Origin: Candidatus Woesearchaeota archaeon
Lineage (GTDB): Archaea > Nanobdellota > Nanobdellia > Pacearchaeales > GW2011-AR1
Reading direction: 5' to 3'
Length of the DNA stretch: 36,096 bases
Assembly: GCA_964655925.1 (NCBI GenBank)
Contig: CAZZNU010000002.1
Location: forward strand, 1-36,096
Shown here: positions 7,864 through 28,681 of the stretch, in pieces
How the letters are laid out: every line of letters starts with the position of its first letter
Position numbering within the stretch: the stretch's first letter is position 1
Notes under the pieces: generated by a model
What the model was told of the DNA's origin: nothing
What the model saw: only the letters and a program-made list of their open reading frames with translations
The model's database searches: none
Position numbers and translations under genes: made by a program

Positions 7864-7885
7864 TTTAGTATTAGATAGAATGTTA

Positions 7886-8050
7886 TTATTTCTTCTTTTG
7901 TGGTCTAAAATCGTTAGCTCCACATTTTCTGCACCTTGCTTTTCCTGAAAGTATTTTTAAGTTATCTAAACGCATTTTGTGTTTACACACTTTACAAATA
8001 AATGCATTCTTGAATAATCTATTTTGTGCTACTGGTAATTTTGTCGCCAT
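7886..8050 (-). CDS. rpl40e: 50S ribosomal protein L40e
   Basis: Hand-translated 54-aa ORF that is absent from the track: MATKLPVAQNRLFKNAFICKVCKHKMRLDNLKILSGKARCRKCGANDFRPQKKK. It has the L40e pattern (R.F...IC..C ... C.KCG...R) with a C4 zinc ribbon and a basic tail. Confidence 0.85.
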   Translation of the reverse strand: MATKLPVAQNRLFKNAFICKVCKHKMRLDNLKILSGKARCRKCGANDFRPQKKK

Positions 8051-8188
8051 AATAAACTATCTAATATCTCCTTTTTAAGTTTTATGTATTGTACTCACAT
8101 AATTGAGCTATGAAAATTAAATTACTCATTTTGTTTAAGAATTATCTATTACAATAATTATTTTAAATGATTTTTGTTATTTTAGTAC

Positions 8189-12449: not shown

Positions 12450-12458
12450 ATCTGCAAT

Positions 12459-15113
12459 CTATTGTTCTAAATTTAATATCTGCCTTTTATTATTTATTCT
12501 CTTAAATGTATCAAATAAAAATACAAATAGTACACTGAGTAGTGTGCATACTAGCCAATCAGTAATTGGCAAGGGTATTGTTTCAAATATTATGTTTATC
12601 GGTGTATAAATTATTAATATTGTTGCTAATATGGATACACCTGATGCAATAGCTAAATATGGATTAATGAACGGAGAACGGTTAAGGGCAGTTTTTCTAA
12701 AGCTTCTAAAGCAGAATGCACCGGCTATTTCTATTACTATCAAGGCCAAAAGTGCTGTCGTTCTAGCATCTTTTATGTCTTGTCCTAATACTGTAAATGT
12801 GACATAGAATGATAGTACTACGAATATCCCAGCAACAACTGCAGAACCTGCAATTAATTTTATTAAATCTTTATTCAATATTGAAGCGTTTTTACGAGGT
12901 TTTTCTAGCATTATATCTTTTGAAGATTTGTTTAGTCCTAATGTTATTGCTGGTAAATTATCAGTTACCATGTTCATGAAAAGAATTTGGATTGCCAATA
13001 ATATGGGTATTGGCCAACCTAAAGTGGGAGCTAATAACACTCCTAAAAACAAAACTATGAACTCGGCAACATTACATGAAAGAAGATATGTTACGAATTT
13101 TCTTATATTATTAAAAATTGTTCTCCCTTCTCGTATGGCATCCACGATTGTTACAAAATTATCATCTTTTAAAATTAAATCTGCTACTGAACGAGAAACA
13201 TCAGTACCATTTTTTCCCATCGCTACTCCAATGTGTGCTTCTTTTAATGCTGGAGCATCATTAACTCCATCTCCAGTCATAGTAACTATCTCCCCATTCT
13301 CTTTTAGTGCCTTAACTATTCTTAATTTGTGTTCTGGATTTACCCTTGCGAAAATAACTGTACTTTTAACAATCTTTATCAAATCTTTATCTGTTAATTC
13401 GTCTAATTGAAAGCCTTCTATAATTTTCCCTTTGTTTAAATTAATTTGCTTAGCTATTGCAATAGCTGTTTCTTTATCATCACCTGTAATCATCTTTATT
13501 TTTATTCCAGCTTTTTTACAATCTCTTAAAGCCTCTTTAATACCTTCTCTTGGTGCATCCTCTATCCCTACAAAACCCAAAAATATCAAATCATCTGAAC
13601 TAATTTCTTGATTTATGTCTAATGTTGAAGATTCTTTGTAAGCAAAGGCAATAGTTCTAAGTGAATTAGAAGTCATTTCGTGTTTCGTATTTAGTATTGA
13701 TTCTCTATCTCTTTCTAATAGCCTAAAAACCCCATTCTCCCTTTGTATATATTTACACTTTCTTAATATGTAATCCAATGCTCCTTTAGAGTATACTATT
13801 TTTCTATTCTCATCTTTAGACAATATATGCATTATTTTTTTTTCTGAAGAAAATGGAATTTCATCTAGCCTTTTTTCAAAATCTTCTTTATAGATATTAC
13901 CTTTTGCGGACATAATAAGCAACGATGCTTCTGTTGGTGCTCCAAAAATATTGTATTCACTTTCCTTATTACCAATTCTCTCAATTCTAGCGTCATTACA
14001 TAAAGTTGCATTTTTTAGTAATAGATTTAGTGTCTTATATTTTTTAGGATCTATTTTTGTATCGTCTAATAAAAACTCTCCTTGATTATTATACCCAACC
14101 CCACTTACTGTTATTGAATTGTGATCTGTAAATATTCGTTTTACCGTCATTTCACCTTTTGTTATTGTGCCTGTCTTGTCTGCACATATCACAGTGGTTT
14201 CGCCTAAAGTTTCAATAATGGACATTCTATTTACTATAGCATTTTTCTTTGCCATTTTATACACTCCCACAGAGAGCGTTGTCACAAAAACTACTGGGAG
14301 TGCCTCTGGAAATGACGATACAGACATAGCAATAACTAAAATTAAAATATCAATCATTATTGTTTCGCTAATTGTTCCCATCTGAAAAAGTGTTAGCATA
14401 CCTATTATAATAGAAATTGACAATCCACCTATTGCCATCCACTTTGTTATTTTGTTTACTTTCCTTTGTAATGGTAAATCTTTTTCGGCCGTAGATATAA
14501 GGCTAGCTATTTTTCCTATCTTAGATGACATTCCTGTCTTTGTCACCATTGCTATACATTTTCCCTCTACGATGAAAGAGCCAGAATAAATTAAATTTTC
14601 TTCGTCTGATGTGTTTAAATTTGTTGTAGATTTTTTTCTGATTTCGTCTGATTCTCCTGTAAGAGCAGATTCATTTACTAACAAGTTTTTTTCTGAGATC
14701 ACGACACAGTCTGCAGAAATTTTTTCACCTGTTCTTAATATTAGCATATCTCCAGGAACCACATCTTTGGTTAAAATTTCTTTTTCAACACCGTCTCTAA
14801 TAACTACTGAAACATGAGTTATCATATCTTTTAGCTTCTCTACAGACTTTTCTGCTTTATATTCCTGTATAAATGCAGTCATTATGACTATTAAAATTGT
14901 AAAAAATACTACATAGGCCGTAAGAGATTTCCCAACTATAAATGAAAGAATCATAGAAATTAATAACAAATAAACTACCACATTTTTCCTTACTTGACGG
15001 AATAATATTTTAAAAGCTGATACCTTGTTTATTTCAAGAATCTCATTAGGACCATAAAGTTCATACCTATCTTTTGCTTCTTTAGATGTTAATCCTTGTA
15101 TTTTGTTAGACAT
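12459..15113 (-). CDS. Cation-transporting P-type ATPase (P2/Ca2+-ATPase-like)
   Basis: 884 aa. TGES, phosphorylation site ICADKTGTITKG, TM4 PEALP, MITGDD and TGDGVNDAPALK. GGTGA Shine-Dalgarno 5 nt upstream of the ATG. Confidence 0.93.
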   Translation of the reverse strand: MSNKIQGLTSKEAKDRYELYGPNEILEINKVSAFKILFRQVRKNVVVYLLLISMILSFIVGKSLTAYVVFFTILIVIMTAFIQEYKAEKSVEKLKDMITHVSVVIRDGVEKEILTKDVVPGDMLILRTGEKISADCVVISEKNLLVNESALTGESDEIRKKSTTNLNTSDEENLIYSGSFIVEGKCIAMVTKTGMSSKIGKIASLISTAEKDLPLQRKVNKITKWMAIGGLSISIIIGMLTLFQMGTISETIMIDILILVIAMSVSSFPEALPVVFVTTLSVGVYKMAKKNAIVNRMSIIETLGETTVICADKTGTITKGEMTVKRIFTDHNSITVSGVGYNNQGEFLLDDTKIDPKKYKTLNLLLKNATLCNDARIERIGNKESEYNIFGAPTEASLLIMSAKGNIYKEDFEKRLDEIPFSSEKKIMHILSKDENRKIVYSKGALDYILRKCKYIQRENGVFRLLERDRESILNTKHEMTSNSLRTIAFAYKESSTLDINQEISSDDLIFLGFVGIEDAPREGIKEALRDCKKAGIKIKMITGDDKETAIAIAKQINLNKGKIIEGFQLDELTDKDLIKIVKSTVIFARVNPEHKLRIVKALKENGEIVTMTGDGVNDAPALKEAHIGVAMGKNGTDVSRSVADLILKDDNFVTIVDAIREGRTIFNNIRKFVTYLLSCNVAEFIVLFLGVLLAPTLGWPIPILLAIQILFMNMVTDNLPAITLGLNKSSKDIMLEKPRKNASILNKDLIKLIAGSAVVAGIFVVLSFYVTFTVLGQDIKDARTTALLALIVIEIAGAFCFRSFRKTALNRSPFINPYLAIASGVSILATILIIYTPINIIFETIPLPITDWLVCTLLSVLFVFLFDTFKRINNKRQILNLEQ

Positions 15114-15202
15114 ATAATCACCTTTTAATAAAGAATAAAAGAATAAAACATTTATAAGTTTTTTTGATTTTTTCGAGGATAAGATTAATTTTTATAAAAA
15201 CA

Positions 15203-15210
15203 TTTAAAAT
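15203..15210 (+). promoter_or_regulatory. TATA-like box (TTTAAAAT) upstream of map
   Basis: Lies 22-29 nt upstream of ATG 15232. A second TTTATAAAAA occurs at 15191-15200. Confidence 0.35.
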
Positions 15211-15231
15211 ATAGTTCAAATTGGTTTGTCT

Positions 15232-16134
15232 ATGGATGCATATGCAATAGAATGTTACAAAAAAGCTGGAGAAATATCTACCAGAGTAAAAAATCTTTTA
15301 GATAAGTTTGTAAAAGCTGATATGAAATTATTGGATATTGCAGAATTCATTGAACAAAAGATAATTGAATATGGTGCTATTCCTGCTTTTCCTACAAACT
15401 TAAGTATGAACGAGGTAGCTGCCCATTACACGCCCATCCCTAATGACAATAAAACTGCTAATGGACTTTTAAAAATTGATTTTGGCGTTTGTGTAGATGG
15501 TTATATTGCAGACAATGCGATTAGCTTTGACTTAACAAAAGAAAATAGATACAAAGAAATGATTGAATTAAATAATATGATTTTAGAAAAAATTAACAAA
15601 TCTATAAACTGTAGTTTTTTAGTAAAAGATATAGGAGAAATTGCAGTTAATTGTTTAAATGATTTCAATGAAAAGAACAATAGCAATTTTAAATTAATCC
15701 GTAATTTGTGTGGGCATGGACTAGATAGAGATAAAATACATACTGGACTTATAATTCCAAACTATAAAAACAATTCAAATGAAACACTTAAAGGAGTAGC
15801 ATTTGCTGTTGAACCGTTTATTACAGACGGGAACGGAGAAATATATGAAGGAGCTCCTGGAAATATTTATATATTGAATTCAGAGATAATTCCAAGAAGT
15901 AGAGAAGAGAGAAAAATTATTGATTTTGTGAAAAAGGAATATAAAACAAGACCCTTTTGTGAAAGATGGTTGGTTAATTCTGGATTTAAAATGACAAAGT
16001 ACTTTTTGAAAAATCTTGAAAATAGTAAAATAATTTACCAATATCCACTGTTAATTGAAAAAAGCAAAGGAATCGTTAGCCAGGTGGAAAATTCTTTTGT
16101 TTGTACAGATGAGGATGTATTTATACTAATATAA
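15232..16134 (+). CDS. map: Methionine aminopeptidase, type 2 (archaeal)
   Basis: About 300 aa with a pita-bread fold pattern: AAHYTP, DFGVCVDGYIADNA, CGHG, AVEPF, and a C-terminal helical insert typical of type 2. ATG at 15232; the track start at 15226 is a TTG. Confidence 0.9.
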   Translation: MDAYAIECYKKAGEISTRVKNLLDKFVKADMKLLDIAEFIEQKIIEYGAIPAFPTNLSMNEVAAHYTPIPNDNKTANGLLKIDFGVCVDGYIADNAISFDLTKENRYKEMIELNNMILEKINKSINCSFLVKDIGEIAVNCLNDFNEKNNSNFKLIRNLCGHGLDRDKIHTGLIIPNYKNNSNETLKGVAFAVEPFITDGNGEIYEGAPGNIYILNSEIIPRSREERKIIDFVKKEYKTRPFCERWLVNSGFKMTKYFLKNLENSKIIYQYPLLIEKSKGIVSQVENSFVCTDEDVFILI

Positions 16135-16173
16135 TTTCGTTATGTTTAAATATATATAATACTATTTTTTTGT

Positions 16174-16668
16174 ATGAAAAGGATGGTGTATAGTCTTGAT
16201 AGTTTATTGAGATTTAGAAGAAGGAAGATAATTATTTCTATTATTTTAGTGATTATTTTGGGGTTCATTTTGGGATATTTCTTAACACACTATAATAGAT
16301 GTAACGACTTTGATTGTTTTAAAGAAAATTTAGCAGAATGCAAGAAGACGAAATTTGCCGGAGGAGACAACATAATATATGGATATATTATAGAAGGAAC
16401 AACAAATGGGAAATGTGTAGTAAGTGTTGAATTGTTAGAAGGAAAATTAACAAATCATGATACATCTATTTTGAAGGGGAAGTCTATGGTATGTTATTTG
16501 GATTATGGTGTTGTCTCGTTACCCGAATCAGACCTATCTAAATGCCATGGGGAACTCAAAGAAGCGCTACAAGAACAAGTTATTAATAAGCTATACACTT
16601 ATCTGATACAAAATTTAGGACAAATAAATAGGAATTTAATAGATCCACTTAGTGTTATAAATGAGTAA
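16174..16668 (+). CDS. Hypothetical N-terminally anchored, Cys-containing extracytoplasmic protein
   Basis: 164-aa ORF. Basic stretch RFRRRK, then a TM helix IIISIILVIILGFILGYFL, then six Cys in the remainder. Overlaps the next gene by 8 nt. No family recognised. Confidence 0.6.
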   Translation: MKRMVYSLDSLLRFRRRKIIISIILVIILGFILGYFLTHYNRCNDFDCFKENLAECKKTKFAGGDNIIYGYIIEGTTNGKCVVSVELLEGKLTNHDTSILKGKSMVCYLDYGVVSLPESDLSKCHGELKEALQEQVINKLYTYLIQNLGQINRNLIDPLSVINE

Positions 16669-17437
16669 AATTAAAATTGGTCCTTCAGGTGTTGGGCCTG
16701 TGAAGGATATTATAAATAATTTGGAAAGGTTCTCTAGAGCTGGAATTTCTGTAGCTGAGATTACATTTACTTATAGTGTCTATATAAATAAAGATGATGC
16801 CATTAAAATTAAGGAAGCTGCCGATAAATTTGGTATAGAACTTTCAATTCATGCCCCCTATTACATAAATCTTAATTCTGATGATGAGAAAAAACTTAGT
16901 GCTTCAAAGCAAAGAATAATAAAATGTTGTGAGATTGGGCATTTAATTGGGGCGAGGCAGATAGTTATACATTCAGGGTTTTATTCTAAAAAAAGTCCTG
17001 AGGAAACTTATGAAAATATAAAAAAATCTATTATAGAATTGATGGAAATAATCAAGAAAAATAATTGGGATGTAGAGTTAGCACCTGAGGTGATGGGAAA
17101 AGTTAATGTATTTGGTTCTATTGAAGAAATATCTAAGCTTGCAAGTGAGACTGGTTGTTCTTTCACGATAGATTTTGCACACATCCTTGCTAGATACAAG
17201 AAGCCTATGCTAGAAGATGTTATATTAGCATTCCCTCAAAAAAAATGGCATTGTCATTTCTCTGGAATTGAATATAACGAAAAAGGAGAAAGAAAACACA
17301 TTAATACTGAAATATCTGAATGGAAAAATTTGTTAGATAGATTAAAAAAATTAGATAAAGAAATTAATATTATTAACGAATCTCCAAATCCGTTTGAGGA
17401 TGCTGTGATGGGAATAAAGTTACTTGGGGAGCAGTAA
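16661..17437 (+). CDS. nfo: AP endonuclease family 2 / endonuclease IV-like TIM-barrel protein
   Basis: 258 aa. Metal-ligand pattern HAPYYINL, VIHSG, APEVMGK, IDFAHI and HCHFSGIEY, as in archaeal endonuclease IV-like proteins. Confidence 0.75.
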   Translation: MSKIKIGPSGVGPVKDIINNLERFSRAGISVAEITFTYSVYINKDDAIKIKEAADKFGIELSIHAPYYINLNSDDEKKLSASKQRIIKCCEIGHLIGARQIVIHSGFYSKKSPEETYENIKKSIIELMEIIKKNNWDVELAPEVMGKVNVFGSIEEISKLASETGCSFTIDFAHILARYKKPMLEDVILAFPQKKWHCHFSGIEYNEKGERKHINTEISEWKNLLDRLKKLDKEINIINESPNPFEDAVMGIKLLGEQ

Positions 17438-17475
17438 ACTGTTTACTGTCAACTGTATACGGTCAACTGTTTACC
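17434..17475 (+). repeat. Heptad array 2: 6 tandem GTNNAC(Y) units filling a convergent gene gap
   Basis: GTAAACT GTTTACT GTCAACT GTATACG GTCAACT GTTTACC. Overlaps the nfo-like stop (17435-17437) and the giant gene stop (17471-17473). Confidence 0.9.
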
Positions 17476-20400
17476 CTAATCTTATTATTACACTTCCGCC
17501 GGTAGACGATATAGTAATATTTCCAGAAGTTGTGTTTATTACAGGATGATTTGTGCCTGTATTATCTACATCAATTAGTAATCCACCTTTTGTACCATTT
17601 ACATGGAACTTTTTTTGTGGTGTAGTTGTGCCGATTCCAACATTGCCCGTTGAACCAAGAGTTACTATCCTTGTATCTGCACCAGCACTATTAACAAGAT
17701 TAAAAGTCATAGATCCGTCTAATAGTCTTATATAAGAAGCTCCAATCGAAGTATTCTCTCTCCCCCATGAACCGGTATAACGCCAATTATTACTTATGCC
17801 TGCACCCATATAGGTCAAACCGGGTTCACTTGCCCATAAATATAAATCAGAATTTGTATTAGCATTATTTTCAGCTTTAAGATGTATTTGTGAAGTAGTA
17901 TGAGAACCTTGTATATTCAATAATTTATCAGGGTTACTTGTCCCAATTCCTACTCTATCCGTATTTGAATTAACAAATAAAGTATTCGTGTCAACAGTTA
18001 GGTTTTTAACAAAAACATTATTCTCAGCAAATGTATTCGCTTTGTTAATAAACGCTACATTAGTCATATTTCCTGTCCACCTAGGGTCTGTCTCTGTCTT
18101 TATACTAGATGAATTAACTGCTTGAAGTTGGGAATAAGTTACAGCATCGGTGGCTGAAGAACCGCTCGCTAGTCCTGTGATTTTATTGGAATTCATTGCT
18201 AAAGTTCCCCTAATATTGACTGTGCCATTTACATCTAATGTTGATGTTGGGGATATTGTTCCTATGCCTACTCGTTTGTTTTGAACTCCGCCTGAACCGT
18301 CGGATTCTGAGTAAATAGAAAGTATATTTTCGCTATCTACTCTAAACACATATCCTTCAGGGGTGCCAGTTAATGCTGCTGACGAAACTGGCATATCCAT
18401 TGCTGTTACAAGTCCTGAATCTTCTGAAAAAGATAGCGTTCCTATATTTAGTGTTCCACCAACATCAATTTCGTTATTAGGATTTACTTTAAACATATTA
18501 ATCACTCCTGTTCCTGAAGAATCGACTGCACTTATCCATTCATTATTAGCAATCTTTAATTTATCAAACGAGCCCAAGTTTGCAGAAATGTTGGTAACTG
18601 TTAGATTATCTTTGATGATAACACTACCACTAACATCTAATTTGGCAGCTGGTACTGATGTCCCAATTCCTACATTGCCAGATCCTAATAGCGTCATAGC
18701 AGTTGTTCCTTTCGGGCTTAGTGTTATCTTATTTGTATTAGAATTATATCCTGTTGAGATATCTAAAGAATTTGAACCAGATCCACTATAAGTTATTTTG
18801 GCATTTTTATTGCTTCCACCATCTTCTGTGAATGATGTAAATGTTAATACTGTAGAACTACCTGTTCTTCCTCTTATATGCAAACTGCTAGTTGGCACGG
18901 CTGTCCCAATACCGACTTGTTTATTTGTGGCATCGATAAATAAAGCATTTGTGTTAAATGATTGATTATATGCTCCAAACGAATTCGCTTTATTAACAAA
19001 AGCTACATTAGAAAAATTACCTGTCCATCTAGGATCTGTTTCAGTCTTTATGCCAGATGAATTGACAGCTTTAAGTTGAGAAAAAGTCACAGCCTCTGTG
19101 TCTGAAGAAGCATTTGCTAAGCCTGTGATTTTATTAGAGTTCATCGTTAAATTACCTTCTACTGAAACATTACCTACAATGTGTAGATTTGCATTAGGAG
19201 TAGCAGTTCCAATGCCGACCCTTCCAACATTTGTTAAATTCATAGCATTTAAATTAATACTTTTTACCGCATTTTCATAAGGAACAAAATCTCCACTGAC
19301 AATATTACTAACTGCTTGAAGCTGAGCATAGGTTACAGCATCAGTGCCAGAAGAACCATTTTTTAGACCTGTTATAACATAATTGTTCATTGTTAGATTA
19401 CCTTCTACTGAAACATTGCCTGCAACATGCAGTTTTGACTTTGGAGAGCCTGTTCCAATGCCTATATTCCCTGCATCTGTAATCCTCAACCTTTCTTGTG
19501 GTGAATTCCCTCCAGTTTTTATCAAAAAATCACCTGCACCTCCACTTCTTCTGATTCCACCAATTTCTGGGCCATATCCATCTGATGTACTTGTTCTAAA
19601 TTTAATAAAAGCGCCACCATCTTCATTAGTAGCATCGTTTGCATGCACTCCTTGCAATGTGATGTAATTTCTATGTGTTCCAGCAGTACCTGTTGCAGGA
19701 AAATTTAAAGTACTAATTGTAACGGTGCCATTAGTGGTTAGTGCCTGATTTCCTAAATTCACTGATTTTGAAGCACCTGTATAAGGTATAAAGTCACCAC
19801 TAACAGTATTGCTAACTGCTTGGAGCTGAGCATAAGTCACAGCATCATAAGGTGAAGAACCGTTAGATAAATTAGTAATTTTTTTATTGTTCATTATAAT
19901 ATTTCCAGTAATATTTAACCCTGCGAACTTTGGACTACTTGCTATTGTAACATTTTGGTCCATTGCATAAAGTTTATTTGCACCTTGCCCGGTATTTATT
20001 GTAGTAGCATTCAATGTTCCAACCGAGACCGATCCAGTTGTGGTTAGTCCTTGACCGCTTAAGTTTATTGGTTTTGTCGCACCTGTGTATGGAATAAAAT
20101 CAGACAAATCTTGGTTTGTGTACATTCTTAGTTTCCCATTTTTAAATTCAAAAATAGGATGCTCTATATTTAACCTAAAAGAAGTTGTTGCTGTATACAT
20201 CATTCCTAGCATAATATAGATGTATCCATCCTCAGTTGTAGGTAAGTTTTGAGTTAAATAATCTCCACTAGTTGTTCCTGCACCAGCTAAAACAAATAGG
20301 CCATCATTATTTATTGTACCTTTAAGATAAATTGGCTTATGCGCTGTCCATCCACTCTGAACATTTTGATTATATCTAAAATTTGTGCCCATAGAAACAG

Positions 20401-22909
20401 ATGAATAAATATAAGAAGTTGAAGTAGCGGCGTTTGCAGCAACGGTAGCAGTCGTATAATATGCTAAAATGGGACTATTAACAACAAAAGGTTGGGAGTT
20501 AACAGTCTTTGCATTAGCTGATGTACTATCTCCAATAACAATTGGATGATACCTTCCATCTGAAGCCATCATTAAAAGTTTATATCTCGTTATTTGTTCT
20601 CCTGCAATTACCCCAGAACCACTCCATCTAACTGTATATGATTCTGTTCCATCTACATAATCTGCCCATACCCAACGACCAACTCCATCTATTGTGGTGT
20701 ATGTTAAAATTGCTACTGTGTTAACAGGTAAATGTGTCGTAAAAGCTCCTGCATTTCTGTAAACTTGTATTGCACCTAAATTATTTATGTTTAAAGTGGT
20801 CGTAGAAGCTCCTGCTATTCCTATTTTATAAGCTATTGTTAATCCATTATAATAGTTTTTTATATCTGAATTTGTTCCTAACCATGTTCCTGCAGTTGTT
20901 CCAGATCCTTCAACATAATATAGGCTATCACTAACACTTGCAAAATCACTTGAGTTTAACCCATCTAATAAGTCCGCATCTAAACCACTACCACTACCAT
21001 CATTACCTTCGTGCCAAATTTTATTCCCCTCAACTGCTATTGTTCCCGCAGATATCCTAGTTATTGTAGTATCCGATGCGTGTCCTATGTTAATTCCTGT
21101 AAATTGTGGGCTACTAGATGTTGTAACATTTTGATTCATTGCATAAAGTTTATTTGCACCTTGCCCGGTATTTATTGTAGTAGCATTCAATGTGCCAACC
21201 GAAACCGATCCAGTTGTGGTTAGTCCTTGACTGCCTAAGTTTATTGGCTTTGTTGCACCTGTGTATGGAACAAAATCGCCACTAACAGTGTTACTAACTG
21301 CTTGGAGCTGAGCGTAAGTCACAGCATCGGTGGCCGAAGAACCGTTAGATAAATTAGTAATCTTTTTATTATTCATTATAATATTTCCAGTAATATTTAA
21401 CCCTGCAAACTTTGGACTACTTGCTATTGTAACATTTTGGTCCATTGCATAAAGTTTGTTTGCGCCTTGTCCAGTATTTATTGTAGTAGCATTCAATGTG
21501 CCAACCGAAACCGACCCGGTTGTACTTAACCCTTGACCGTTTAAGTTTATTGGTTTTGTTGCACCTGTGTATGGAACAAAATCGCCACTAACAGTATTAC
21601 TAACTGCTTGGAGCTGAGCGTAAGTCACGGCATCGGTGGCCGAAGAACCATTCGATAAGCCAGTGATTTTATTGGAATTCATTGCTAAAGTTCCCCTAAT
21701 ATTGACTGTACCATTTACATCTAATGTCGATGTTGGAGATATTGTTCCTATGCCTACTCGTTTATTTTGAACTCCGCCTGAACCGTCGGATTCTGAGTAA
21801 ATAGAAAGTATATTTTCGCTATCTACTCTAAACACATATCCTTCAGGGGTGCCAGTTAATGCTGCTGACGAAACTGGCATATCCATTGCTGTTACAAGTC
21901 CTGAATCTTCTGAAAAAGATAGCGTTCCTATATTTAGTGTTCCACCAACATCAATTTCGTTATTAGGATTTACTTTAAACATATTAATCACTCCTGTTCC
22001 TGAAGAATCGACTGCACTTATCCACTCATTATTAGCAATTTTTAATTTATCAAACGAGCCCAAATTTGCAGAAATATTATATATGCCTAATGTTAAATTT
22101 TTGGTTGCTCCTAAGTATGGAAGGAAATCATCTGTAATTGACGTACTAATCGATTGAAGTTGAGCATAAGTTACAGCATCAGTAGCTGAAGAACCATTCG
22201 CTAAACCAGTGATTTTATTAGAATTCATTGCTAATAACCCCGAGATGGACGCATTTCCATCAACTGTTAATTTATAAGTTGGAGAAGTTAATCCTATTCC
22301 GACATTTCCAACATTAAAATAAATGTTATTTCCGGAAGTTATCCATTGGGAGGCTCCTTCAATTCCTGACAAATTTAAGTTTATTAACTTTGAACCATCT
22401 CCTATGAAATAGGAAGCTGTTATATTCCCTGTTGTTATAAGATTTTGCCCTGATAAATTTACCTGAGAATTAAACTCTACTCCAGAAATTGTAACATTTT
22501 GGGCTCTGACGGCGTACGGCGTCGATGTTAAATTTATTCTGGGCGTCATTTCAGCATCAGAACCTACCTTTATTCCCAAAAAATATTGCGTATCTGCTTT
22601 TATCTTATCAATACCATCTAAAATTACATCATATATGCCTTCACTATCTGGTGTTATTGTTTTAAGTTTTGTATACACGGGAGTGCCACCGGTGTAAGAA
22701 TTATAAATAGAAAAATTTATGTTAGTTGCAGTTGTTATCGGAGCTCCATCAGAATTTGTAAGTTTACCATGGATATTAAATGTTTGAGGTATAGCACTAA
22801 CGACAGTAAGTAAAAATAAAAAAAGTAACACAGTAGTCAAGTGTCCGAGGTAAGATATCTGAAGTCCGACAGTTAATTTCTTCTTTATCATGTTTCCTCT
22901 TTTGTTCAT
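17471..22909 (-). CDS. Giant secreted repeat protein, tail-fibre/adhesin-like (1812 aa)
   Basis: N-terminal signal/TM (LTTVLLFLFLLTVVSA). 7 copies of NKITGL-x-GSSATDAVTYAQLQ-type motifs. 9 copies of (G)xVGIGTxxPxxxLxVxG motifs. KIWHEGNDGSGSGLDADLLDG motif as in phage tail fibres. ETDPRW motifs. No C-terminal anchor. Confidence 0.9.
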   Translation of the reverse strand: MNKRGNMIKKKLTVGLQISYLGHLTTVLLFLFLLTVVSAIPQTFNIHGKLTNSDGAPITTATNINFSIYNSYTGGTPVYTKLKTITPDSEGIYDVILDGIDKIKADTQYFLGIKVGSDAEMTPRINLTSTPYAVRAQNVTISGVEFNSQVNLSGQNLITTGNITASYFIGDGSKLINLNLSGIEGASQWITSGNNIYFNVGNVGIGLTSPTYKLTVDGNASISGLLAMNSNKITGLANGSSATDAVTYAQLQSISTSITDDFLPYLGATKNLTLGIYNISANLGSFDKLKIANNEWISAVDSSGTGVINMFKVNPNNEIDVGGTLNIGTLSFSEDSGLVTAMDMPVSSAALTGTPEGYVFRVDSENILSIYSESDGSGGVQNKRVGIGTISPTSTLDVNGTVNIRGTLAMNSNKITGLSNGSSATDAVTYAQLQAVSNTVSGDFVPYTGATKPINLNGQGLSTTGSVSVGTLNATTINTGQGANKLYAMDQNVTIASSPKFAGLNITGNIIMNNKKITNLSNGSSATDAVTYAQLQAVSNTVSGDFVPYTGATKPINLGSQGLTTTGSVSVGTLNATTINTGQGANKLYAMNQNVTTSSSPQFTGINIGHASDTTITRISAGTIAVEGNKIWHEGNDGSGSGLDADLLDGLNSSDFASVSDSLYYVEGSGTTAGTWLGTNSDIKNYYNGLTIAYKIGIAGASTTTLNINNLGAIQVYRNAGAFTTHLPVNTVAILTYTTIDGVGRWVWADYVDGTESYTVRWSGSGVIAGEQITRYKLLMMASDGRYHPIVIGDSTSANAKTVNSQPFVVNSPILAYYTTATVAANAATSTSYIYSSVSMGTNFRYNQNVQSGWTAHKPIYLKGTINNDGLFVLAGAGTTSGDYLTQNLPTTEDGYIYIMLGMMYTATTSFRLNIEHPIFEFKNGKLRMYTNQDLSDFIPYTGATKPINLSGQGLTTTGSVSVGTLNATTINTGQGANKLYAMDQNVTIASSPKFAGLNITGNIIMNNKKITNLSNGSSPYDAVTYAQLQAVSNTVSGDFIPYTGASKSVNLGNQALTTNGTVTISTLNFPATGTAGTHRNYITLQGVHANDATNEDGGAFIKFRTSTSDGYGPEIGGIRRSGGAGDFLIKTGGNSPQERLRITDAGNIGIGTGSPKSKLHVAGNVSVEGNLTMNNYVITGLKNGSSGTDAVTYAQLQAVSNIVSGDFVPYENAVKSINLNAMNLTNVGRVGIGTATPNANLHIVGNVSVEGNLTMNSNKITGLANASSDTEAVTFSQLKAVNSSGIKTETDPRWTGNFSNVAFVNKANSFGAYNQSFNTNALFIDATNKQVGIGTAVPTSSLHIRGRTGSSTVLTFTSFTEDGGSNKNAKITYSGSGSNSLDISTGYNSNTNKITLSPKGTTAMTLLGSGNVGIGTSVPAAKLDVSGSVIIKDNLTVTNISANLGSFDKLKIANNEWISAVDSSGTGVINMFKVNPNNEIDVGGTLNIGTLSFSEDSGLVTAMDMPVSSAALTGTPEGYVFRVDSENILSIYSESDGSGGVQNKRVGIGTISPTSTLDVNGTVNIRGTLAMNSNKITGLASGSSATDAVTYSQLQAVNSSSIKTETDPRWTGNMTNVAFINKANTFAENNVFVKNLTVDTNTLFVNSNTDRVGIGTSNPDKLLNIQGSHTTSQIHLKAENNANTNSDLYLWASEPGLTYMGAGISNNWRYTGSWGRENTSIGASYIRLLDGSMTFNLVNSAGADTRIVTLGSTGNVGIGTTTPQKKFHVNGTKGGLLIDVDNTGTNHPVINTTSGNITISSTGGSVIIRLG
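18177..18589. repeat. Intragenic long repeat A (copy 1 of 2)
   Basis: 413 bp aligned by eye to 21663-22075 with about 7 mismatches. The offset is exactly 3486 bp (1162 codons, in frame). Confidence 0.9.
19795..20101. repeat. Intragenic repeat C, dispersed copy (~307 bp)
   Basis: Aligns by eye to 21277-21583 (offset 1482 bp, in frame) at roughly 90-95% identity. Encodes SGDF(V/I)PYTGATKPINL..GQGL.TTGSVSVGTLNATTINTGQGANKLYAMDQNV...NKKITNLSNGSS..DAVTYAQLQAV. Confidence 0.85.
21101..21583. repeat. Intragenic repeat C, tandem copies (partial ~176 bp plus full ~307 bp)
   Basis: 21101-21276 is a partial unit. 21277-21583 is a full unit homologous to 19795-20101. Confidence 0.8.
21663..22075. repeat. 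Intragenic long repeat A (copy 2 of 2)
   Basis: See 18177-18589. The track's antisense ORFs 18363..18791 and 21849..22157 share an identical 75-aa N-terminus, which independently confirms the duplication. Confidence 0.9.
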
Positions 22910-22940
22910 TTTATCGTTACAGTTATTATATAACTACAGT

Positions 22941-22950
22941 ATTTAAAATA
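22941..22950 (-). promoter_or_regulatory. TATA-like box upstream of the giant gene
   Basis: The minus strand reads TATTTTAAAT, 32-41 nt upstream of ATG 22909 and 3 nt from heptad array 3. Confidence 0.3.
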
Positions 22951-22952
22951 TT

Positions 22953-23043
22953 GGTTGACGGTAAGCGGTAAACAGTTGACAGTAAACGGTTGACAGTTGA
23001 CAGTAAACGGTTGACAGTTGACAGTAAACCGCATGCCGTAAGC
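22953..23043 (-). repeat. Heptad array 3: 13 tandem units in the opposite orientation, with a 21-bp higher-order period
   Basis: The plus strand reads GGTTGAC GGTAAGC GGTAAAC AGTTGAC AGTAAAC GGTTGAC AGTTGAC AGTAAAC GGTTGAC AGTTGAC AGTAAAC CGCATGC CGTAAGC. The 21-bp unit AGTTGACAGTAAACGGTTGAC occurs twice perfectly, followed by a partial third copy. Confidence 0.92.
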
Positions 23044-23052
23044 TTTAAATAA
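23044..23052 (+). promoter_or_regulatory. TATA-like box (TTTAAATAA) upstream of the 23073 gene
   Basis: Lies 21-29 nt upstream of ATG 23073 and directly abuts heptad array 3. Confidence 0.35.
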
Positions 23053-23072
23053 TAATTTATACAATACTTTTT

Positions 23073-23360
23073 ATGGTTAAGAAAAAAGAGGTTAAAAAGA
23101 CAAAAAAACCTGTCAAACCATCAGCTAAAAAAAAGACGAAAAAACAAAAAGAACTTTTTGAAAAGTATTGGTTCTGGGCTATTGTATCTAGCGTTGTTGG
23201 ATTTTTCGTAGCAGCAGTTATTTTCGGTACTGCAGGAATAGTACTAGGTTCGCTGAGTTTGAAGAAAAAAGAGAATAAAAACAGAGCTATCCTTGGAATA
23301 GTTTTAGGTTCTGTAGATGTTCTACTCTGGGTAGTTTCTTTGTTTGTTTTATATCTTTAA
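23073..23360 (+). CDS. Small membrane protein with a Lys-rich N-terminal tail and two TM helices
   Basis: 95 aa. MVKKKEVKKTKKPVKPSAKKKTKKQK, followed by two hydrophobic helices (DUF4190-like topology, by eye). Confidence 0.6.
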   Translation: MVKKKEVKKTKKPVKPSAKKKTKKQKELFEKYWFWAIVSSVVGFFVAAVIFGTAGIVLGSLSLKKKENKNRAILGIVLGSVDVLLWVVSLFVLYL

Positions 23361-23396
23361 GCAAGAATTTATAAGTATTTTTTATTTGTTTATTTG

Positions 23397-24380
23397 ATGG
23401 TAATAGTATTAGGTGTAGAATCTACTGCACATACTTTTGGGGTAGCTGTGGTTAGAGATGGTAAGATTTTATCAAATGTAAAGAGTGTTTACACTACTTC
23501 TTCTGGGGGAATGATACCAATTGAGGTAAAAAAACATCACGAAGAGGTCTCTGAAAACCTGTACAGAAGGGCACTGGAAGAATCAAATATCAAAGAGAGC
23601 AATGTAGATGCTATTGCCTTTTCTAATGCTCCAGGTTTGGCACCCTGTTTAATTGTTGGTCTGAATTTTTCTAAAAAAAAATCTGAAAAATTAAAAATCC
23701 CCTTAATACCTGTTAATCATTGTATTGCCCATTTAGCTATTGGAGAAACTTTAGGTGCTAAGGACCCTGTAATGCTATACACATCTGGGGCCAACACTCA
23801 AGTGATAGCGTATGAATCTGGTAAATATAGAATATTTGGAGAGACTTTAGACATTGGTGTTGGAAACTTTATAGATAGTTTCGCAAGATTCGCAGGATTA
23901 GGATTTCCTGGTGGTCCAAAAATAGAAGAGTTAGCGAAAAAAGGAAAAAAGTTAATAGAATTACCATATTCAATAAAAGGAATGGATGTTAGTTATACGG
24001 GACTTCAAACCAAATTAAAAAAACTACTATCTGATGGAGAGAAAATAGAAGATTTGAGTTACTCATTACAAGAATATATTTTTTCAATACTTACCGAGGC
24101 TAGCGAAAGAGCATTAGCGCATACTGGGAAAAAAGAATTGTTATTAGGAGGCGGTGTTGCTTGTAATTCTAGACTTCAAGAGATGTGTAAAATAATGTGC
24201 TTAGAAAGAGGCGTGGATTTTTTCTGCCCTGATAAGAGCTTACTTGTGGATAACGCAGGGATGATTGCTTACTTGGGATGGAAGATGCTCAAATCAAAAA
24301 AATATGATTATAAAGACAATATTTTCCTAGACATTAACCCAAAAGAAAGAACAGATATGGTAGAAGTAACTTGGAAATAG
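23397..24380 (+). CDS. kae1: tRNA N6-adenosine threonylcarbamoyltransferase Kae1 (archaeal type, not fused to Bud32)
   Basis: VLGVESTAHTFGVAVV N-terminus, metal-binding NHCIAHL (HxxxH), LYTSGANTQV, GGGVACNSRL. ATG at 23397; the track start at 23394 is a TTG. Confidence 0.9.
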   Translation: MVIVLGVESTAHTFGVAVVRDGKILSNVKSVYTTSSGGMIPIEVKKHHEEVSENLYRRALEESNIKESNVDAIAFSNAPGLAPCLIVGLNFSKKKSEKLKIPLIPVNHCIAHLAIGETLGAKDPVMLYTSGANTQVIAYESGKYRIFGETLDIGVGNFIDSFARFAGLGFPGGPKIEELAKKGKKLIELPYSIKGMDVSYTGLQTKLKKLLSDGEKIEDLSYSLQEYIFSILTEASERALAHTGKKELLLGGGVACNSRLQEMCKIMCLERGVDFFCPDKSLLVDNAGMIAYLGWKMLKSKKYDYKDNIFLDINPKERTDMVEVTWK

Positions 24381-24431
24381 TTTGAAACCTGTACACGCAA
24401 ATAATATAAATGTGTTTTAATTAATTTTTCT

Positions 24432-25238
24432 ATGAACATAATTAAAGCATCTGGTGCTATAGAGTTGTTTGATTCCAAAAAAATTTATTATACAATAAGA
24501 GAAGCTGGTGCTTCTAATAAATTAGCAAAAGAAGCAGTGAGAGCAGTTCGTTCTATTATATATGACGGTATTACCAGTGAGGAAATATTGAAATTTTTAT
24601 TAAATTTTTTAAAAAAAGAAAAAGGCGTTTCACAGAGATATAATTTAAAAAAAGCTGTGATGTCCCTTGGTCCCTCTGGGTTTCCTTTCGAAAAGTATTT
24701 TGCTAAAATATTGGATTTATATGGATACAAAACAAATGTTGGAGTACGACTGAAAGGGAAAAGAGTACTACACGAAGTAGACATTGTAGCTATTAAGAAT
24801 AAAAAAGCTATGATAGAATGTAAGTATCACAACCAATCTGGTATTTCTACTGGTTTACAACCCGCAATGTACACATATGCTCGGTTTTTAGATTTAAAGG
24901 GACACAATTTTAATTTCCCTTGGCTCGTAACAAACACAAAGTGTTCTATTGACGCCCAAAACTATGCTGAGGGGGTTGACTTGAAAATTACGAGTTGGAA
25001 CTATCCTCCTAACGAAAGTTTACTCAAACTAATAGAGAATAAAAGAATCTATCCTATTACTATTTCAAACACTTTAAAAAAATATGAACTGGAAAAGTTT
25101 TTTGACGCTAACATCATTACAGTAAAAGATTTATTAAGAATAGACATAGATAAAATTGTTAATCTTACCGGAATAAATAAAAGTAGAATTCAGAAAATTG
25201 TTCAAGAAATTAAACTTATAAATGATAATGTTTCTTAG
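24432..25238 (+). CDS. ATP-cone domain protein fused to a PD-(D/E)xK nuclease-like core and a C-terminal helix-hairpin-helix
   Basis: The N-terminal ~90 aa is ATP-cone-like (IKASGAIELFDSKKI...). The core HEVDIVAIKNKKAMIECKYH gives a D...ExK pattern. The C-terminus ITVKDLLRIDIDKIVNLTGINKSRIQKIV is HhH-like. Confidence 0.7.
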   Translation: MNIIKASGAIELFDSKKIYYTIREAGASNKLAKEAVRAVRSIIYDGITSEEILKFLLNFLKKEKGVSQRYNLKKAVMSLGPSGFPFEKYFAKILDLYGYKTNVGVRLKGKRVLHEVDIVAIKNKKAMIECKYHNQSGISTGLQPAMYTYARFLDLKGHNFNFPWLVTNTKCSIDAQNYAEGVDLKITSWNYPPNESLLKLIENKRIYPITISNTLKKYELEKFFDANIITVKDLLRIDIDKIVNLTGINKSRIQKIVQEIKLINDNVS

Positions 25239-25818
25239 ATTTTTTAGCCAATAGCAGAGGAAAAATTATATCACTTAAGCAACAGGGTATCAACACAGAT
25301 ATAAAAACTATTATAACTGATAAAATCCACAATATTAATTTGCTCAAATTTGTAAAGCTAACTAAGTAAAACAAACTTGCAAACACTGATACAAAAACAT
25401 GTAACAAATGAGGTAACTTTGTATTTTTAAACTTAAGAGATGCGATTGTGCCTACTAGTGCCGATGATAAAATTATTAATGGATTTTCTAATATTGGCAT
25501 ATGGAATTGAGGTTTTAGGCCTAAAATTAACGCTCCTAAAAATGGCAATATAACATCACTAATAGTTCCTATGAAAATAGAAGCCGCCACACCTACTAGT
25601 AGTGCATGCATAACAGAATTGTTGTGCCTTTTAAAGACTAGTGTAGATGCAAAAGCTGAGAAAATGACATGTACTATATGTAATCCCTCAAAAATGTGTT
25701 TTGAATTATCATAGTTTATGAAAAATGATAGTATCAATGATACGACTATAGCACTTACAGTAGCAAATATTGTAAATGGTATATGTTCTTTTAACTCTTG
25801 CCTTATCTCTTTTTTCAT
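25216..25818 (-). CDS. Polytopic membrane protein with internally duplicated HxxH helices (possible metal-binding or transport role)
   Basis: 200 aa with about 6 hydrophobic helices. GLHIVHVIFSAFASTLVF and LPHLLHVFVSVFASLFYL are a clear internal repeat. The 3' end overlaps the convergent gene by 23 nt. Confidence 0.65.
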   Translation of the reverse strand: MKKEIRQELKEHIPFTIFATVSAIVVSLILSFFINYDNSKHIFEGLHIVHVIFSAFASTLVFKRHNNSVMHALLVGVAASIFIGTISDVILPFLGALILGLKPQFHMPILENPLIILSSALVGTIASLKFKNTKLPHLLHVFVSVFASLFYLVSFTNLSKLILWILSVIIVFISVLIPCCLSDIIFPLLLAKKSKKHYHL

Positions 25819-25866
25819 TCTATTCTCCTTATAAAAAAAATAAAAAAATAAAAAATTTATACTTAT

Positions 25867-26199
25867 TTAATTCCTTTGATTTGTATAACAATCTCTACAA
25901 TAAATCGGTTTGTCACCTGTTGGTTTGAATGGTACTTCACAATCTATTCCACAACTAGCACATTTCGCTTTAAACATTTCTCGTGGCTTATTGTTGAAGT
26001 TACTTCTACCAAATCTGTTCTTTGCAAACCTATTGTTACTTCCAAACCTGTTTCCGCCAAACCTATTATTCCTGCTTTTTTTGAAACAGTCAGGACATCT
26101 TACTGGTTTTCCCTCTGTTGGTTCGAAAGGTACTTCACAATCTTGACCACAGTCGGAACATACAGCTTTGAACATTTTTCTTGGTTCATCTTCTGCCAT
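25867..26199 (-). CDS. CxxC-x17-CxxC zinc-ribbon protein (two ribbons flanking an NRFG low-complexity linker)
   Basis: CSDC-17aa-CPDC and CASC-17aa-CRDC, counted by hand. Linker NNRFGGNRFGSNNRFAKNRFGRSNF. GGAGGA Shine-Dalgarno about 7 nt upstream of the ATG. Confidence 0.85.
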   Translation of the reverse strand: MAEDEPRKMFKAVCSDCGQDCEVPFEPTEGKPVRCPDCFKKSRNNRFGGNRFGSNNRFAKNRFGRSNFNNKPREMFKAKCASCGIDCEVPFKPTGDKPIYCRDCYTNQRN

Positions 26200-26368
26200 A
26201 TAGTTTTCCTCCTAAATTTATATATAATCTAAAAAAATCCATTTTGTTAATTTACCATTCATCTCGACCTAACTGAGAAATAATTGTTAGTTTAAAAACC
26301 CTTTGGAACAAAAAGTACACCTTTAAAGACATAAATTAACAGTGTATTCTCCATTATTTATTATTATT

Positions 26369-28681
26369 TTAAGCTAAATAGCTAGCTGACTTTATCAAAG
26401 CCGAGTTTGCACTCCTTAGGTATTTACGCTCTATCTGTTTATATCTTTCTTCATCTGATTTACTTACACTCGGCAATACTTTGTCCATTGCCTTTTCAAA
26501 ATGTCTTTCTGTAACCTCGTTTGCTTCTATATTTTCTCTTAGTGCAAGCATACCTGCTTCTCTACATAAATTTTCTAAATCTGCTCCTGTATATCCTTCT
26601 GTTTTTTTCGCTAACTCTGTAATCACTTTTTTCTTGTTTTTTATTGGCATATTTTTTGCATGTATTTCTAAAATTTGTAATCTTCCATCTTCTGTTGGAA
26701 TATTAACATAAACTATTCTGTCAAATCTCCCTGGCCTTACTATTGCTGGGTCTAGAATATCTGGTCTATTTGTAGCTCCAATAACAACAACATTAGAAAG
26801 TGTCTCTATACCATCCATTTCTGCCAATAATTGATTTAAGACATTCTCTGTGACTCTAGAGCCACCTTCTATATTTCCTCTCTTTGAGGCTATAGCATCT
26901 ATTTCATCGAAAAACACAACACATGGAGACACCTGTCTTGCTTTTTCAAAAATCTTTCTTATTCCCTCTTCACTTTTCCCTACCCACATTGATAACAAAG
27001 AAGGACCTTTTACTTGAATAAAATTAGCGTCACTTTCTTTAGCTACTGCCTTTGCTAGAAGTGTTTTACCAGTGCCTGGAGCACCATACAATAAAACTCC
27101 CCTCGGTGGTCTAATCCCAATCTTGGAAAAGCTAGATGGATATCTTAATGGCCATTCTATTGTTTCTCTTAATTCTTGTTTAGAATTTTCTATACCTCCT
27201 ATATCTTCCCACCTAACATCTGGAGTCTCTACTAATACTTCTCTCATTGCTGATGGCCTAACAGACTTTAATGCTTCTTCAAAATCATTTTTAGTTATTT
27301 TTAAATCATCTAGCACTTCATCGGGAATTTCCTTGTCATCTTCTAAGTTAAATTTGTGAACATTTCTTCTAAGTACACACATAGCTGCTTCTTTTGTCAA
27401 AGATTCTAAGTCTGCACCCACAAAACCATAGGTTTTCTCCGCTAACTCCTCTAAATTTACACTTTTTGTTAAAGGCATATTTCTTGTATGTATCTTAAGT
27501 ATTTGCAACCTTCCATCCTTATCTGGAACTGATAGTTCTACTTCCCTATCAAATCTACCTGGCCTCCTAAGAGCTGGATCTATTGCATTTTGTCTATTAG
27601 TAGCTCCAATGACAACTACTTTACCCCTAGACTGAAGACCATCCATCATTGTTAATAACTGCGAAACCACCCTTTTTTCTACTTCTCCACTACCGTCCTC
27701 TCTTTTGGGTGCTATTGCGTCTATCTCATCTATAAAAATAATAGAAGGCGAGTTTTTCTGAGCATCCTCAAATATCTCTCTTATTTTCTTTTCACTTTCT
27801 CCATAAAATTTGCTCATGATTTCTGGACCATTTATTATTATAAAATTAGCATCACTTTCATTAGCGACTGCTCTTGCTAAAAGTGTCTTACCTGTTCCTG
27901 GAGCTCCATATAGTAAAACCCCTTTAGGCGGTTCTATTCCTAATCTTTCAAATATTTCGGGTCTCTTAAGTGGCAACTCTACCATTTCCCTGACTTTTTT
28001 AACTTCGTTTGTTAATCCACCAATATCTTCGTAAGTAATTGAAGGAATACTTTCTTCCTCAAAGTCTATTGCCTTATTCGTTAAGGTTATTTGTGTATTT
28101 TCTGTAATAATGCATGGATTATTTGGGGATGTGGAAACAACTATGAACCTTACTTGTGTAGCTCCCCCCATATTCATAGGAATACCGATTCCTCCTATAC
28201 CCATTTGATTAAACAAGTCCCCTAAGTCTCCAAATATATCATTAATATCTCCACTCATTATATCACGCCTTTTTTGAGTTCCACCAAGCACAATAACATC
28301 TCCTTTGTTTACTGGCTTTCCTAACAATGCTGATTTAAACCTATTCATATCTCCAGACACTTGCACTCCTTGTTGAGCTGGAGCTATTGTTATTTTTTTT
28401 GCTTCCACTATGTGATATTTTTTTACAATTACATTATCACCTATGCCTGTCTTTGCATTCTTCCTTGTTATCCCATCTATTCTTATTATTTGGTCTCCGC
28501 TGTCGGATGGATAGCCATAATCTACGATAGAATATGTTTCTCGCTCACCTTTAATCGAAATAATGTCCCCTCTATCCAAATCTAATTTTCTCATGAAAGA
28601 AGGGTCTATTCTAGCAATACCTTTATACGCGTCATCTTGCAAAGACTCTACTACTCTAAATTTAATTTCCTTATCTGCCAT
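26369..28681 (-). CDS. cdc48: Cdc48/VCP/VAT-type AAA+ ATPase (two AAA domains)
   Basis: N-domain ([22 protein letters not shown]). Two Walker A motifs ([11 protein letters not shown]), two Walker B motifs ([20 protein letters not shown]), and second-region-of-homology motifs. ATG at 28681; the track start at 28687 is a TTG. Confidence 0.95.

Follow-up and report, generated by a model that had tools for sequence, protein, structure and literature searches.

The stretch of DNA analysed here ("the window": 36,096 nucleotides of contig CAZZNU010000002.1, Candidatus Woesearchaeota archaeon, assembly GCA_964655925.1) contains a minus-strand open reading frame (ORF) at 17471-22909, coding for 1812 aa plus a stop codon. 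Its product, called the giant protein below, belongs with high probability, as judged from its modules, to the phage-tail-fibre-like or mosaic adhesive trimer (MAT)-like class of fibres. The gene caller picked the Met7 start, which yields an 1806-aa form (P0001). The second-largest ORF in the window comprises 884 aa, and an earlier interpretation drawn from the letters and their translations (the sequence-only reading) was right in naming the giant gene as by far the largest. On one side the gene is accompanied by SufB/C, NifS/NifU, PPDK, tRNA-Glu, MutS, MutL, a P-type ATPase, MetAP, and AP endonuclease 2, and on the other by a DUF4190 protein, Kae1 (above the cutoff of the archaeal model), an ATP-cone/Mrr protein, CDC48, TYW1, and RtcB. 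The small-genome archaeal setting that had been proposed is confirmed by the neighbours Kae1, TYW1, CDC48, and RtcB, as well as by the nearest relatives, which come from metagenome-assembled genomes (MAGs) of Woesearchaeota, Nanoarchaeota, and Pacearchaeota.

An exact look-up of the giant protein sequence returned no record, and an NCBIfam scan gave no meaningful match. The protein contains no cysteine and is abundant in Thr, Gly, Ser, and Asn. Its sole hydrophobic stretch on the Kyte-Doolittle scale covers residues 16-46; beyond residue 60, the 19-residue average peaks at 1.06. In relatives, a signal peptide of the classic A-x-A type runs straight into IPQTF or VPxTF, and the corresponding segment here reads VVSA and then IPQTF. 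The prediction of a secreted protein with a signal peptide and no membrane anchor thus holds, and cleavage would occur between VVSA and IPQTF. A tile-by-tile self-comparison of the protein yielded the module map summarized in Table 1.

Table 1. Features of the giant gene and of its predicted product, from the N- to the C-terminus (positions refer to the window)
Feature	Residues	Position	Strand	Remarks
Whole ORF	1-1812	17471..22909	-	1812 aa plus stop; alternative start at Met7 gives the 1806-aa form (P0001)
Predicted signal peptide	1-39	22793..22909	-	putative cleavage between VVSA and IPQTF; from hydrophobicity and relatives
N-terminal beta-sandwich domain	40-165	22415..22792	-	proposed cell-proximal retention domain
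Module A	166-275	22085..22414	-	first capping loop (aa 203), first YadA-stalk-like neck/coil (aa 231), DFLPY; alignment to the BadA neck (3d9x)
X module, copy 1	276-425	21635..22084	-	ends in a capping loop (aa 385) and a stalk unit (aa 413)
Segment absent from L015		18548..22033	-	3486 nt between the X modules; boundaries approximate within the repeat
B repeats 1 and 2	426-625	21035..21634	-	DFVPYTGATKPINL...NKKITNLSNGSS...DAVTYAQLQ; 306-nt tandem repeat
KIWHEGNDGSGSGLDADLLDG motif (KIWHEGN...)	626-650	20960..21034	-	Pfam PTR at the equivalent position in phage homologues, just before C1
Central non-repeat all-beta domain	651-935	20105..20959	-	C1 ~650-760, C2 ~760-935; proposed phage receptor-binding-type module
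B repeat 3 and linker	936-1060	19730..20104	-	94-98% aa identity with B1
MAT/S74-type beta-helix units	1061-1437	18599..19729	-	capping loops (aa 1149, 1231, 1332, 1413), stalk units (aa 1176, 1259), ETDPRW (aa 1290)
X module, copy 2	1438-1587	18149..18598	-	from self-comparison
C-terminal region	1588-1812	17474..18148	-	ETDPRW (aa 1606), capping loops (aa 1653, 1757); conserved non-S74 end ...INTTSGNITISSTGGSVIIRLG; tail-fibre PHROGs

The motif counts of the sequence-only reading were reproduced exactly by regular expressions: seven N[KY]xITGLxxGSSxxDAVTYAQLQ units (residues 231, 413, 514, 1008, 1176, 1259, and 1575), nine [VI]GIG[TL]xxPxxxLxVxG units (residues 203, 385, 1149, 1231, 1332, 1413, 1547, 1653, and 1757), a single KIWHEGNDGSGSGLDADLLDG (residue 630), and two copies of ETDPRW (residues 1290 and 1606). 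Its assignment of these motifs to fibre and adhesin families also found support in hidden Markov model searches. Pfam YadA_stalk (PF05662) matches seven stretches with 155 bits, and its E-value of 5e-46 means that the motif repeats are not due to chance; Phage_T7_tail matches residues 1248-1283 with 35 bits, and several tail-fibre families of PHROGs are matched as well. The stalk units align to the neck and the beginning of the coiled coil in Bartonella BadA (3d9x) and VompD, and also to a phage Gp44 (chain 8es4). Peptidase_S74, a further family considered, is lacking in the giant protein itself (no match to PF13884 in Pfam and no catalytic SDxxxK motif in a comparison of C-termini), although several relatives do end in this domain. 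Two candidate classes were rejected: an S74 (endosialidase-chaperone) fibre, as there is no C-terminal chaperone domain, and a polymorphic toxin, as no toxin domain is present and the C-terminus is fibre-like.

The nine VGIGTxxPxxxL units correspond to the capping loops of S74/MAT-type trimeric beta-helix fibres. MAT fibres are described from the predatory bacterium Bdellovibrio bacteriovorus (Caulton et al. 2024, PMC10769870), with the capping-loop consensus V-G-[IV]-[GN]-T-x-x-P-x-x-x-L and loops such as NVGIGATAPTAKLE and LVGIGTATPAAPLH (main text and Supplementary Figure 18 of that work), and the motif found here is the one listed there. In HMMER alignments, the capping loops of the giant protein match those of Bd2133 and 8ojn residue by residue. 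A profile built from residues 1125-1440 and eight homologues (A4) was searched against the whole PDB at E ≤ 0.01 and retrieved only five matches, all of them Bdellovibrio MAT fibres: 8ond (Bd2133; E = 8e-23), 8oml (2.9e-14), 8ojn (1.4e-13), 8on4 (8.7e-9), and 8ol4 (5e-7). Among deposited phages, cyanophage tail fibres align with 25-35% identity over residues ~1121-1770.

The domain following the signal peptide has a core that AlphaFold2 models as a beta-sandwich (predicted local distance difference test, pLDDT, of 85-97 over ~90 residues). With Foldseek it recovers only generic beta-sandwiches from the PDB (E ≥ 0.012), and its sequence profile finds nothing below E = 0.3 among the solved structures. 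The N-domain is common to 15 of the 119 listed relatives and is located nearly always right behind the signal peptide. An exhaustive HMMER search assigned 15,355 representative clusters to the family at E ≤ 1e-3 (1,946 at E ≤ 1e-10), and in nearly all of them the domain starts at approximately residue 20-35; no PHROG matches it. When species-representative genomes were queried with the single sequence, all ten close relatives proved to be DPANN archaea (three Woesearchaeota, four Nanoarchaeota, and one each of Nanoarchaeia, Pacearchaeota, and Iainarchaeum). DPANN likewise account for most of the named carriers; those from bacteria (Omnitrophota, Bacteroidota, and Thiodiazotropha) are distant. 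The resemblance of the N-terminal module to proteins of Bacteroidetes and of the candidate phyla radiation (CPR), assumed in the sequence-only reading, is therefore limited to distant matches in Bacteroidota and Omnitrophota, whereas every close relative belongs to DPANN.

Among the relatives that share this N-domain, at least four types of C-terminal tip occur. The first (...INTTSGNxTISSxGGSVIIKLG) is found in the giant protein, P0005, P0014, and an ORF of L005 (81% identity); the others are the VGINQTSPEA..IIEI type, S74 chaperone-type ends, and a Cys-rich type. A constant N-terminus combined with a variable tip is the MAT pattern. Each module is common to a different subset of relatives, and sequence relatives of 1000-3100 aa (206 matches) contain X modules, capping loops, and B repeats. 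The genes of P0002 and P0003, the closest homologues, stand in tandem; at least three genes for giant fibres are present at their locus and on the related Woesearchaeota contig of 371 kb, along with other giant LamG/fibrinogen-type proteins.

A further observation concerns a related Woesearchaeota genome (L001, 1-26216, and L006, 1-16375), which contains an island of giant secreted-type proteins of 4141, 1561, 2071, 1210, 849, and 1108 aa. The last three match Laminin_G_3, and two of these also match Fibrinogen_C. Nucleotidyltransferase/HEPN pairs and a Bro-N protein lie scattered within the island. In L006, the fibre encoded upstream is another one (P0005, 2139 aa), so strains differ in their set of fibres.

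The central domain is composed of a widely distributed part, C1, and a less widely distributed part, C2. It has about 90 homologues, most of them 170-480 aa in length. Both of the carriers that were inspected on long contigs are located in phage tail modules, one (L002) with Mtd_N, fn3, C1q, and Collar/Gp10_C as neighbours, the other (L003 and L004) with YomW, the YomU tail tube, and an S74 giant fibre. Further carriers contain Phage_tail_C, Gp10_C, BppL_N, or phage tail repeat-like (PTR) domains, and other regions of the carriers match tail-fibre and host-specificity PHROGs. In two of them, a PTR match is positioned just ahead of C1 (residues 133-155 in P0128 and 273-297 in P0190); at this place, the giant protein has GSGLDADLLDG. 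The AlphaFold2 model of the central domain, based on a 40-sequence alignment, is all-beta with a pLDDT of 86.4. In BFVD it obtained 46 matches, all from tailed phages and many named tail fibre, receptor-binding protein, or hyaluronidase fibre, with good superposition over ~90-120 residues only, i.e., one subdomain. A Foldseek comparison with the PDB gave no match at E ≤ 0.001, the only partial one being a baseplate/tail-fibre chain of phage Pa193. No PHROG family corresponds to the domain, and tblastn found no match in 50,697 deposited phage genomes; for these reasons it is regarded as a phage-fibre module known so far from metagenomes only.

Two side observations relate to this domain. P0121 (460 aa, on a 2.6-kb contig labelled 'Bacilli bacterium') is 84% identical to it and continues with ETDPKW and VGIGT modules; it is part of a different mosaic fibre, and on so short a binned contig the taxonomic label is doubtful. 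The domain also contains a single N-x-S/T sequon in 285 residues, compared with ~3-4 per 100 residues in the rest of the fibre.

Among the known fibre systems, the non-S74 subgroup of MAT fibres (Bd2133, 8ond) comes close in architecture. In both, a signal peptide is followed directly by a conserved beta-rich N-domain and a long beta-helix fibre with capping loops, for which profile homology to Bd2133 was obtained as given above. Both are mosaics whose modules are distributed piecemeal among paralogues; the relatives of the giant protein have S74 as well as non-S74 tips, and there are several paralogues per related genome. The two organisms also depend on contact with other cells. Of the features that characterize MAT fibres, the signal peptide, the capping-loop beta-helix, and the variable tips within a mosaic family were all found here. 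The giant protein differs in being archaeal, without an outer membrane; in its 1812 aa, nearly twice the typical ~1000 aa; in its seven interspersed YadA-type neck/coil segments; and in the placement of a phage-type globular domain in the middle of the fibre, not at the tip. The MAT carriers listed in the original description are exclusively bacteria, including Omnitrophota and Bacteroidota, and archaea are mentioned neither in the paper nor in its supplements (PMC10769870).

Tail fibres and receptor-binding proteins of tailed phages (S74-type fibres such as T5 pb1 and the stalk of K1F endosialidase, the tail fibres of the cyanophages S-SM2, S-CBP1, and S-TIM5, and the N-terminal region of T7 gp17) share with the giant protein the capping-loop beta-helix units, as seen for the cyanophages, the tail-fibre families of PHROGs, Phage_T7_tail, and the central domain, which is known from tail modules and BFVD models. 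They differ in that the giant protein begins with a signal peptide and a cell-type N-domain instead of a baseplate/tail attachment domain, lacks an S74 chaperone, and is encoded among housekeeping genes with native codon usage. Homology to fibre modules of phages is thus evident, whereas a location in a viral genome beside tail or baseplate genes was not observed. Direct sequence relatives occur in MAGs of CPR/Patescibacteria and DPANN (e.g., P0009, P0063, and P0119), many of which, unlike the giant protein, end in Peptidase_S74; these giants are known only by their automatic NCBI name, 'tail fiber domain-containing protein'. Literature searches retrieved no description of such fibres in DPANN or CPR. 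The 'antennae' seen by cryo-electron tomography are situated on the host cell, not on the DPANN cell (PMC11329633).

Taken together, the giant protein is probably a secreted homotrimeric, mosaic, non-S74 MAT-like surface fibre that serves in adhesion, most plausibly to the host of the archaeon. The structural class is the firmer part of this proposal, while for the adhesive role the chances are only slightly better than even. We infer the trimeric state, the length of the fibre, its retention on the cell, its distal end, and its ligand; the first of these follows from the YadA-stalk and S74-type elements, which to our knowledge are found only in trimers. After export, the signal peptide would be removed at the site given in Table 1, and the N-terminal beta-sandwich would keep the fibre attached to the envelope of the archaeon itself. 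The chains might form an intertwined homotrimer, in which beta-helix units bounded by capping loops alternate with the seven YadA-type necks and short three-stranded coils, with the two X modules and the receptor-binding-type globular domain inserted on the way to a non-S74 tip. Scaling from Bd3182, a ~550 Å fibre formed by 922 aa before processing (PMC10769870), would put the fibre of the giant protein on the order of 100 nm in length. Candidate sites of binding are the phage-type domain in mid-fibre and the tip at the C-terminus, and their ligands could be surface structures, probably glycans (or proteins), of another cell, most plausibly the DPANN host. Modules would be traded with relatives and phage fibres, and recombination between internal repeats would add or remove whole cassettes.

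Several points weigh against this proposal. The place of the MAT N-domain is taken by a conserved beta-sandwich of ~100-125 aa, whose link to the N-domain of Bdellovibrio is indirect, through the distant matches in Omnitrophota and Bacteroidota. The orientation of the fibre, with the N-terminus proximal and the C-terminus distal, is not certain, because the putative binding domain is situated in the middle of the fibre and the C-terminal end is conserved in some relatives. Archaea lack an outer membrane, so the fibre must be retained in another way than in Bdellovibrio. Surface display and adhesion are predictions from sequence. The density of N-glycosylation sequons (2.65 per 100 aa) is high compared with the neighbours, but it does not exceed that of a shuffle of the protein's own composition, and for this reason it was not used as evidence. 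Finally, the true length of the gene is uncertain, owing to a short form in an independent assembly (L015, see below).

A fibre of the same structural class might have a different function: cells could use it to aggregate with one another or to build a biofilm matrix, to space or shield their envelope, or to ward off viruses by means of a decoy or barrier. The structural evidence applies equally to such roles, and nothing in the sequence names the ligand. The N-domain family, moreover, is huge and reaches bacteria that are not known as episymbionts (e.g., Thiodiazotropha and Bacteroidota), so that the scaffold is not limited to host-dependent organisms. However, the targets of characterised MAT fibres (PMC10769870) and of phage tail fibres are the surfaces of foreign cells, phage tail-fibre proteins contain the central module as well, and the diversity of tips together with tandem paralogues fits the recognition of variable targets better than a structural role. 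These functions are rated as unlikely, though they form the strongest of the alternatives to adhesion to a host.

The length of the gene depends on the interpretation of its two X modules. Their copies are protein-identical over 141 residues (residues 278-418 in copy 1), and within this block all 11 codon differences are synonymous and none is nonsynonymous, which indicates that the duplicates are real coding sequence under selection at the protein level; a core of 258 nt is identical in both. The module recurs 1-4 times in 20 relatives, including proteins of Patescibacteria. As a separate observation, it shows a weak but repeatable match to the PsbP 23-kDa photosystem II protein (1v2b, E ~0.003-0.004), which is treated as unexplained.

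L015 is an independent assembly of the same locus, its positions 1-13793 corresponding to 9032-26383 of the window with 99% nucleotide identity. Its giant gene encodes a form of ~650 aa, in which exactly 3486 nt (1162 codons, in frame) are missing between the X modules. The single X copy of L015 is a hybrid with one crossover between the two modules, agreeing with copy 1 at 34/34 diagnostic sites up to codon 290 and with copy 2 at 26/26 from codon 295. Possible explanations are a real deletion allele produced by recombination or a collapse of the repeat in L015; a misplaced insert in the window is the least likely of the three. In the latter case, the 1812-aa ORF would be partly an artefact, the true gene would encode ~650 aa, and 3.5 kb would have been misplaced, e.g., from a paralogous fibre gene. 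The exact absence of the segment from a nearly identical locus and the clean joining of copy 1 to copy 2 would agree with this, and the identical core of the X modules is long enough to mislead a short-read assembler. Nevertheless, a misplaced insert needs two in-frame misjoins, the flanks of the X copies differ by synonymous changes only, and L015 has a k-mer coverage of 0.81 and many fragmented genes, which makes a collapse in that assembly the likelier artefact. The frequent presence of 2-4 X modules per protein among relatives and the uniform GC content at third codon positions (GC3, 0.206 in the internal segment, equal to the rest of the gene) favour the long form as real. An insert of this kind is therefore improbable, and even the short form, which keeps the signal peptide, N-domain, capping loops, stalk units, and C-terminal tip, would leave the structural class unchanged.

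A viral origin in the strict sense, with the giant gene as the virion tail-fibre gene of an integrated or degraded archaeal virus, could be suspected from the many matches to phage tail-fibre families and from the Bro-N protein and MNT/HEPN pairs at the locus of the closest homologue. Yet no viral gene was detected within 17 kb upstream or 13 kb downstream; the neighbours are housekeeping genes throughout, and no provirus adjoins the giant gene. The GC content of the gene (0.36, compared with ~0.30 in its surroundings) exceeds the background wholly at codon position 2 (0.46) and is therefore a matter of amino-acid composition, whereas its GC3 (0.213) equals that of the neighbours (0.19-0.27), so that the gene looks native. 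The neighbourhood of Kae1, CDC48, and MetAP also holds fibre genes in other DPANN genomes: in L007, DUF4190 and Kae1 (76% identity) stand beside a fibre gene, and in L012, CDC48 (73%) is located directly upstream of one, with MetAP also present. The giant protein has a signal peptide, and we know of no virion tail fibre with such a peptide; its N-domain is without a PHROG match. Genomic context and codon usage together led to the rejection of a provirus gene, which we consider very improbable. The idea of a domesticated viral fibre is right in so far as modules are common with phage fibres, but it is too simple, because the N-domain belongs to a huge family, follows a signal peptide, and has no counterpart among PHROGs; by its sequence, the giant protein rather resembles a scaffold for cellular fibres whose modules also occur in, and are exchanged with, the fibres of phages.

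In trimeric autotransporter adhesins (TAAs; YadA, BadA, Vomp), the neck/stalk motif marks the transition from beta structure to coiled coil in an obligate trimer. Although the giant protein shares the repeated neck/stalk ...ITGLxxGxxxTDAVTYxQL... (PF05662, seven times, with alignments to the necks of BadA and VompD), there is next to no chance that it is a type Vc TAA of the YadA family, a class refuted by the missing anchor domain: Pfam detects neither YadA_anchor nor a head or other TAA domain, the C-terminus is neither hydrophobic nor a beta-barrel, the coiled coils comprise only ~2 heptads, the archaeal organism has no outer membrane, and the same stalk motif occurs in phage proteins (BFVD A0A6J5PGB0, 'coiled stalk of trimeric autotransporter adhesin', and Gp44 chain 8es4).

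The existence of the family is no surprise, because its relatives are very common in metagenomes and are already annotated automatically as 'tail fiber domain-containing'. What is new is that homology to solved MAT fibres is made explicit, that the setting is archaeal, that YadA necks are interspersed along the fibre and a phage-type domain lies in its middle, and that there is an apparent length polymorphism the size of a cassette. Little is known about the way in which DPANN archaea locate their hosts and stay attached to them, and only a few have been brought into culture. If the MAT-like fibre indeed recognises the host, its central domain and C-terminal tip would be expressible targets for binding assays and for the prediction of host range from metagenomes, and the MAT concept, so far bacterial only, would be extended to archaea, with phage-type binding modules reused by cells. 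More speculatively, and with the odds rather against it, DPANN might own a branch of MAT/phage fibres, i.e., trimers retained on the envelope that carry phage-derived binding cassettes, act as the primary device of host recognition, and are retuned by in-frame recombination of modules; such retuning of length and specificity is suggested by the difference of 1162 codons between the two assemblies of the locus. In that event, phages, predatory bacteria, and archaeal episymbionts would have a common solution to cell-cell recognition, with traffic of modules across the domains of life.

Outside the coding sequence, heptamer arrays (CTGTCAA / ACTGTCAAC / GTTTACNGTCAAC, with periods of 7, 14, and 21) occupy four intergenic regions of the window, at 7699-7743, 17437-17474, 22954-23029, and 33597-33649, and all ten exact ACTGTCAAC sites of the window lie within them. 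Two of the arrays flank the giant gene in inverted orientation. An interpretation of these as ends of a mobile element was rejected, since the same arrays are present in two intergenic regions away from the gene. The arrays also occur in L015 and are absent from the other 14 loci compared; they have no Rfam match, an Rfam scan of the window having returned tRNA only.

Elsewhere in the window, positions 8189-12449 encode a MutS1-MutL pair of bacterial type (MutS model NF003810, 1028 bits) in this DPANN-like genome. The 268-aa protein at 24432-25238, which is kept in L015, combines an ATP-cone with an Mrr-type restriction-endonuclease core and an AF1548-like C-terminal/HhH region. A 674-aa ORF at 31536-33560, with no match in Pfam or NCBIfam, has a signal-like N-terminal segment and a hydrophobic stretch at residues 407-437, and may encode another envelope protein.

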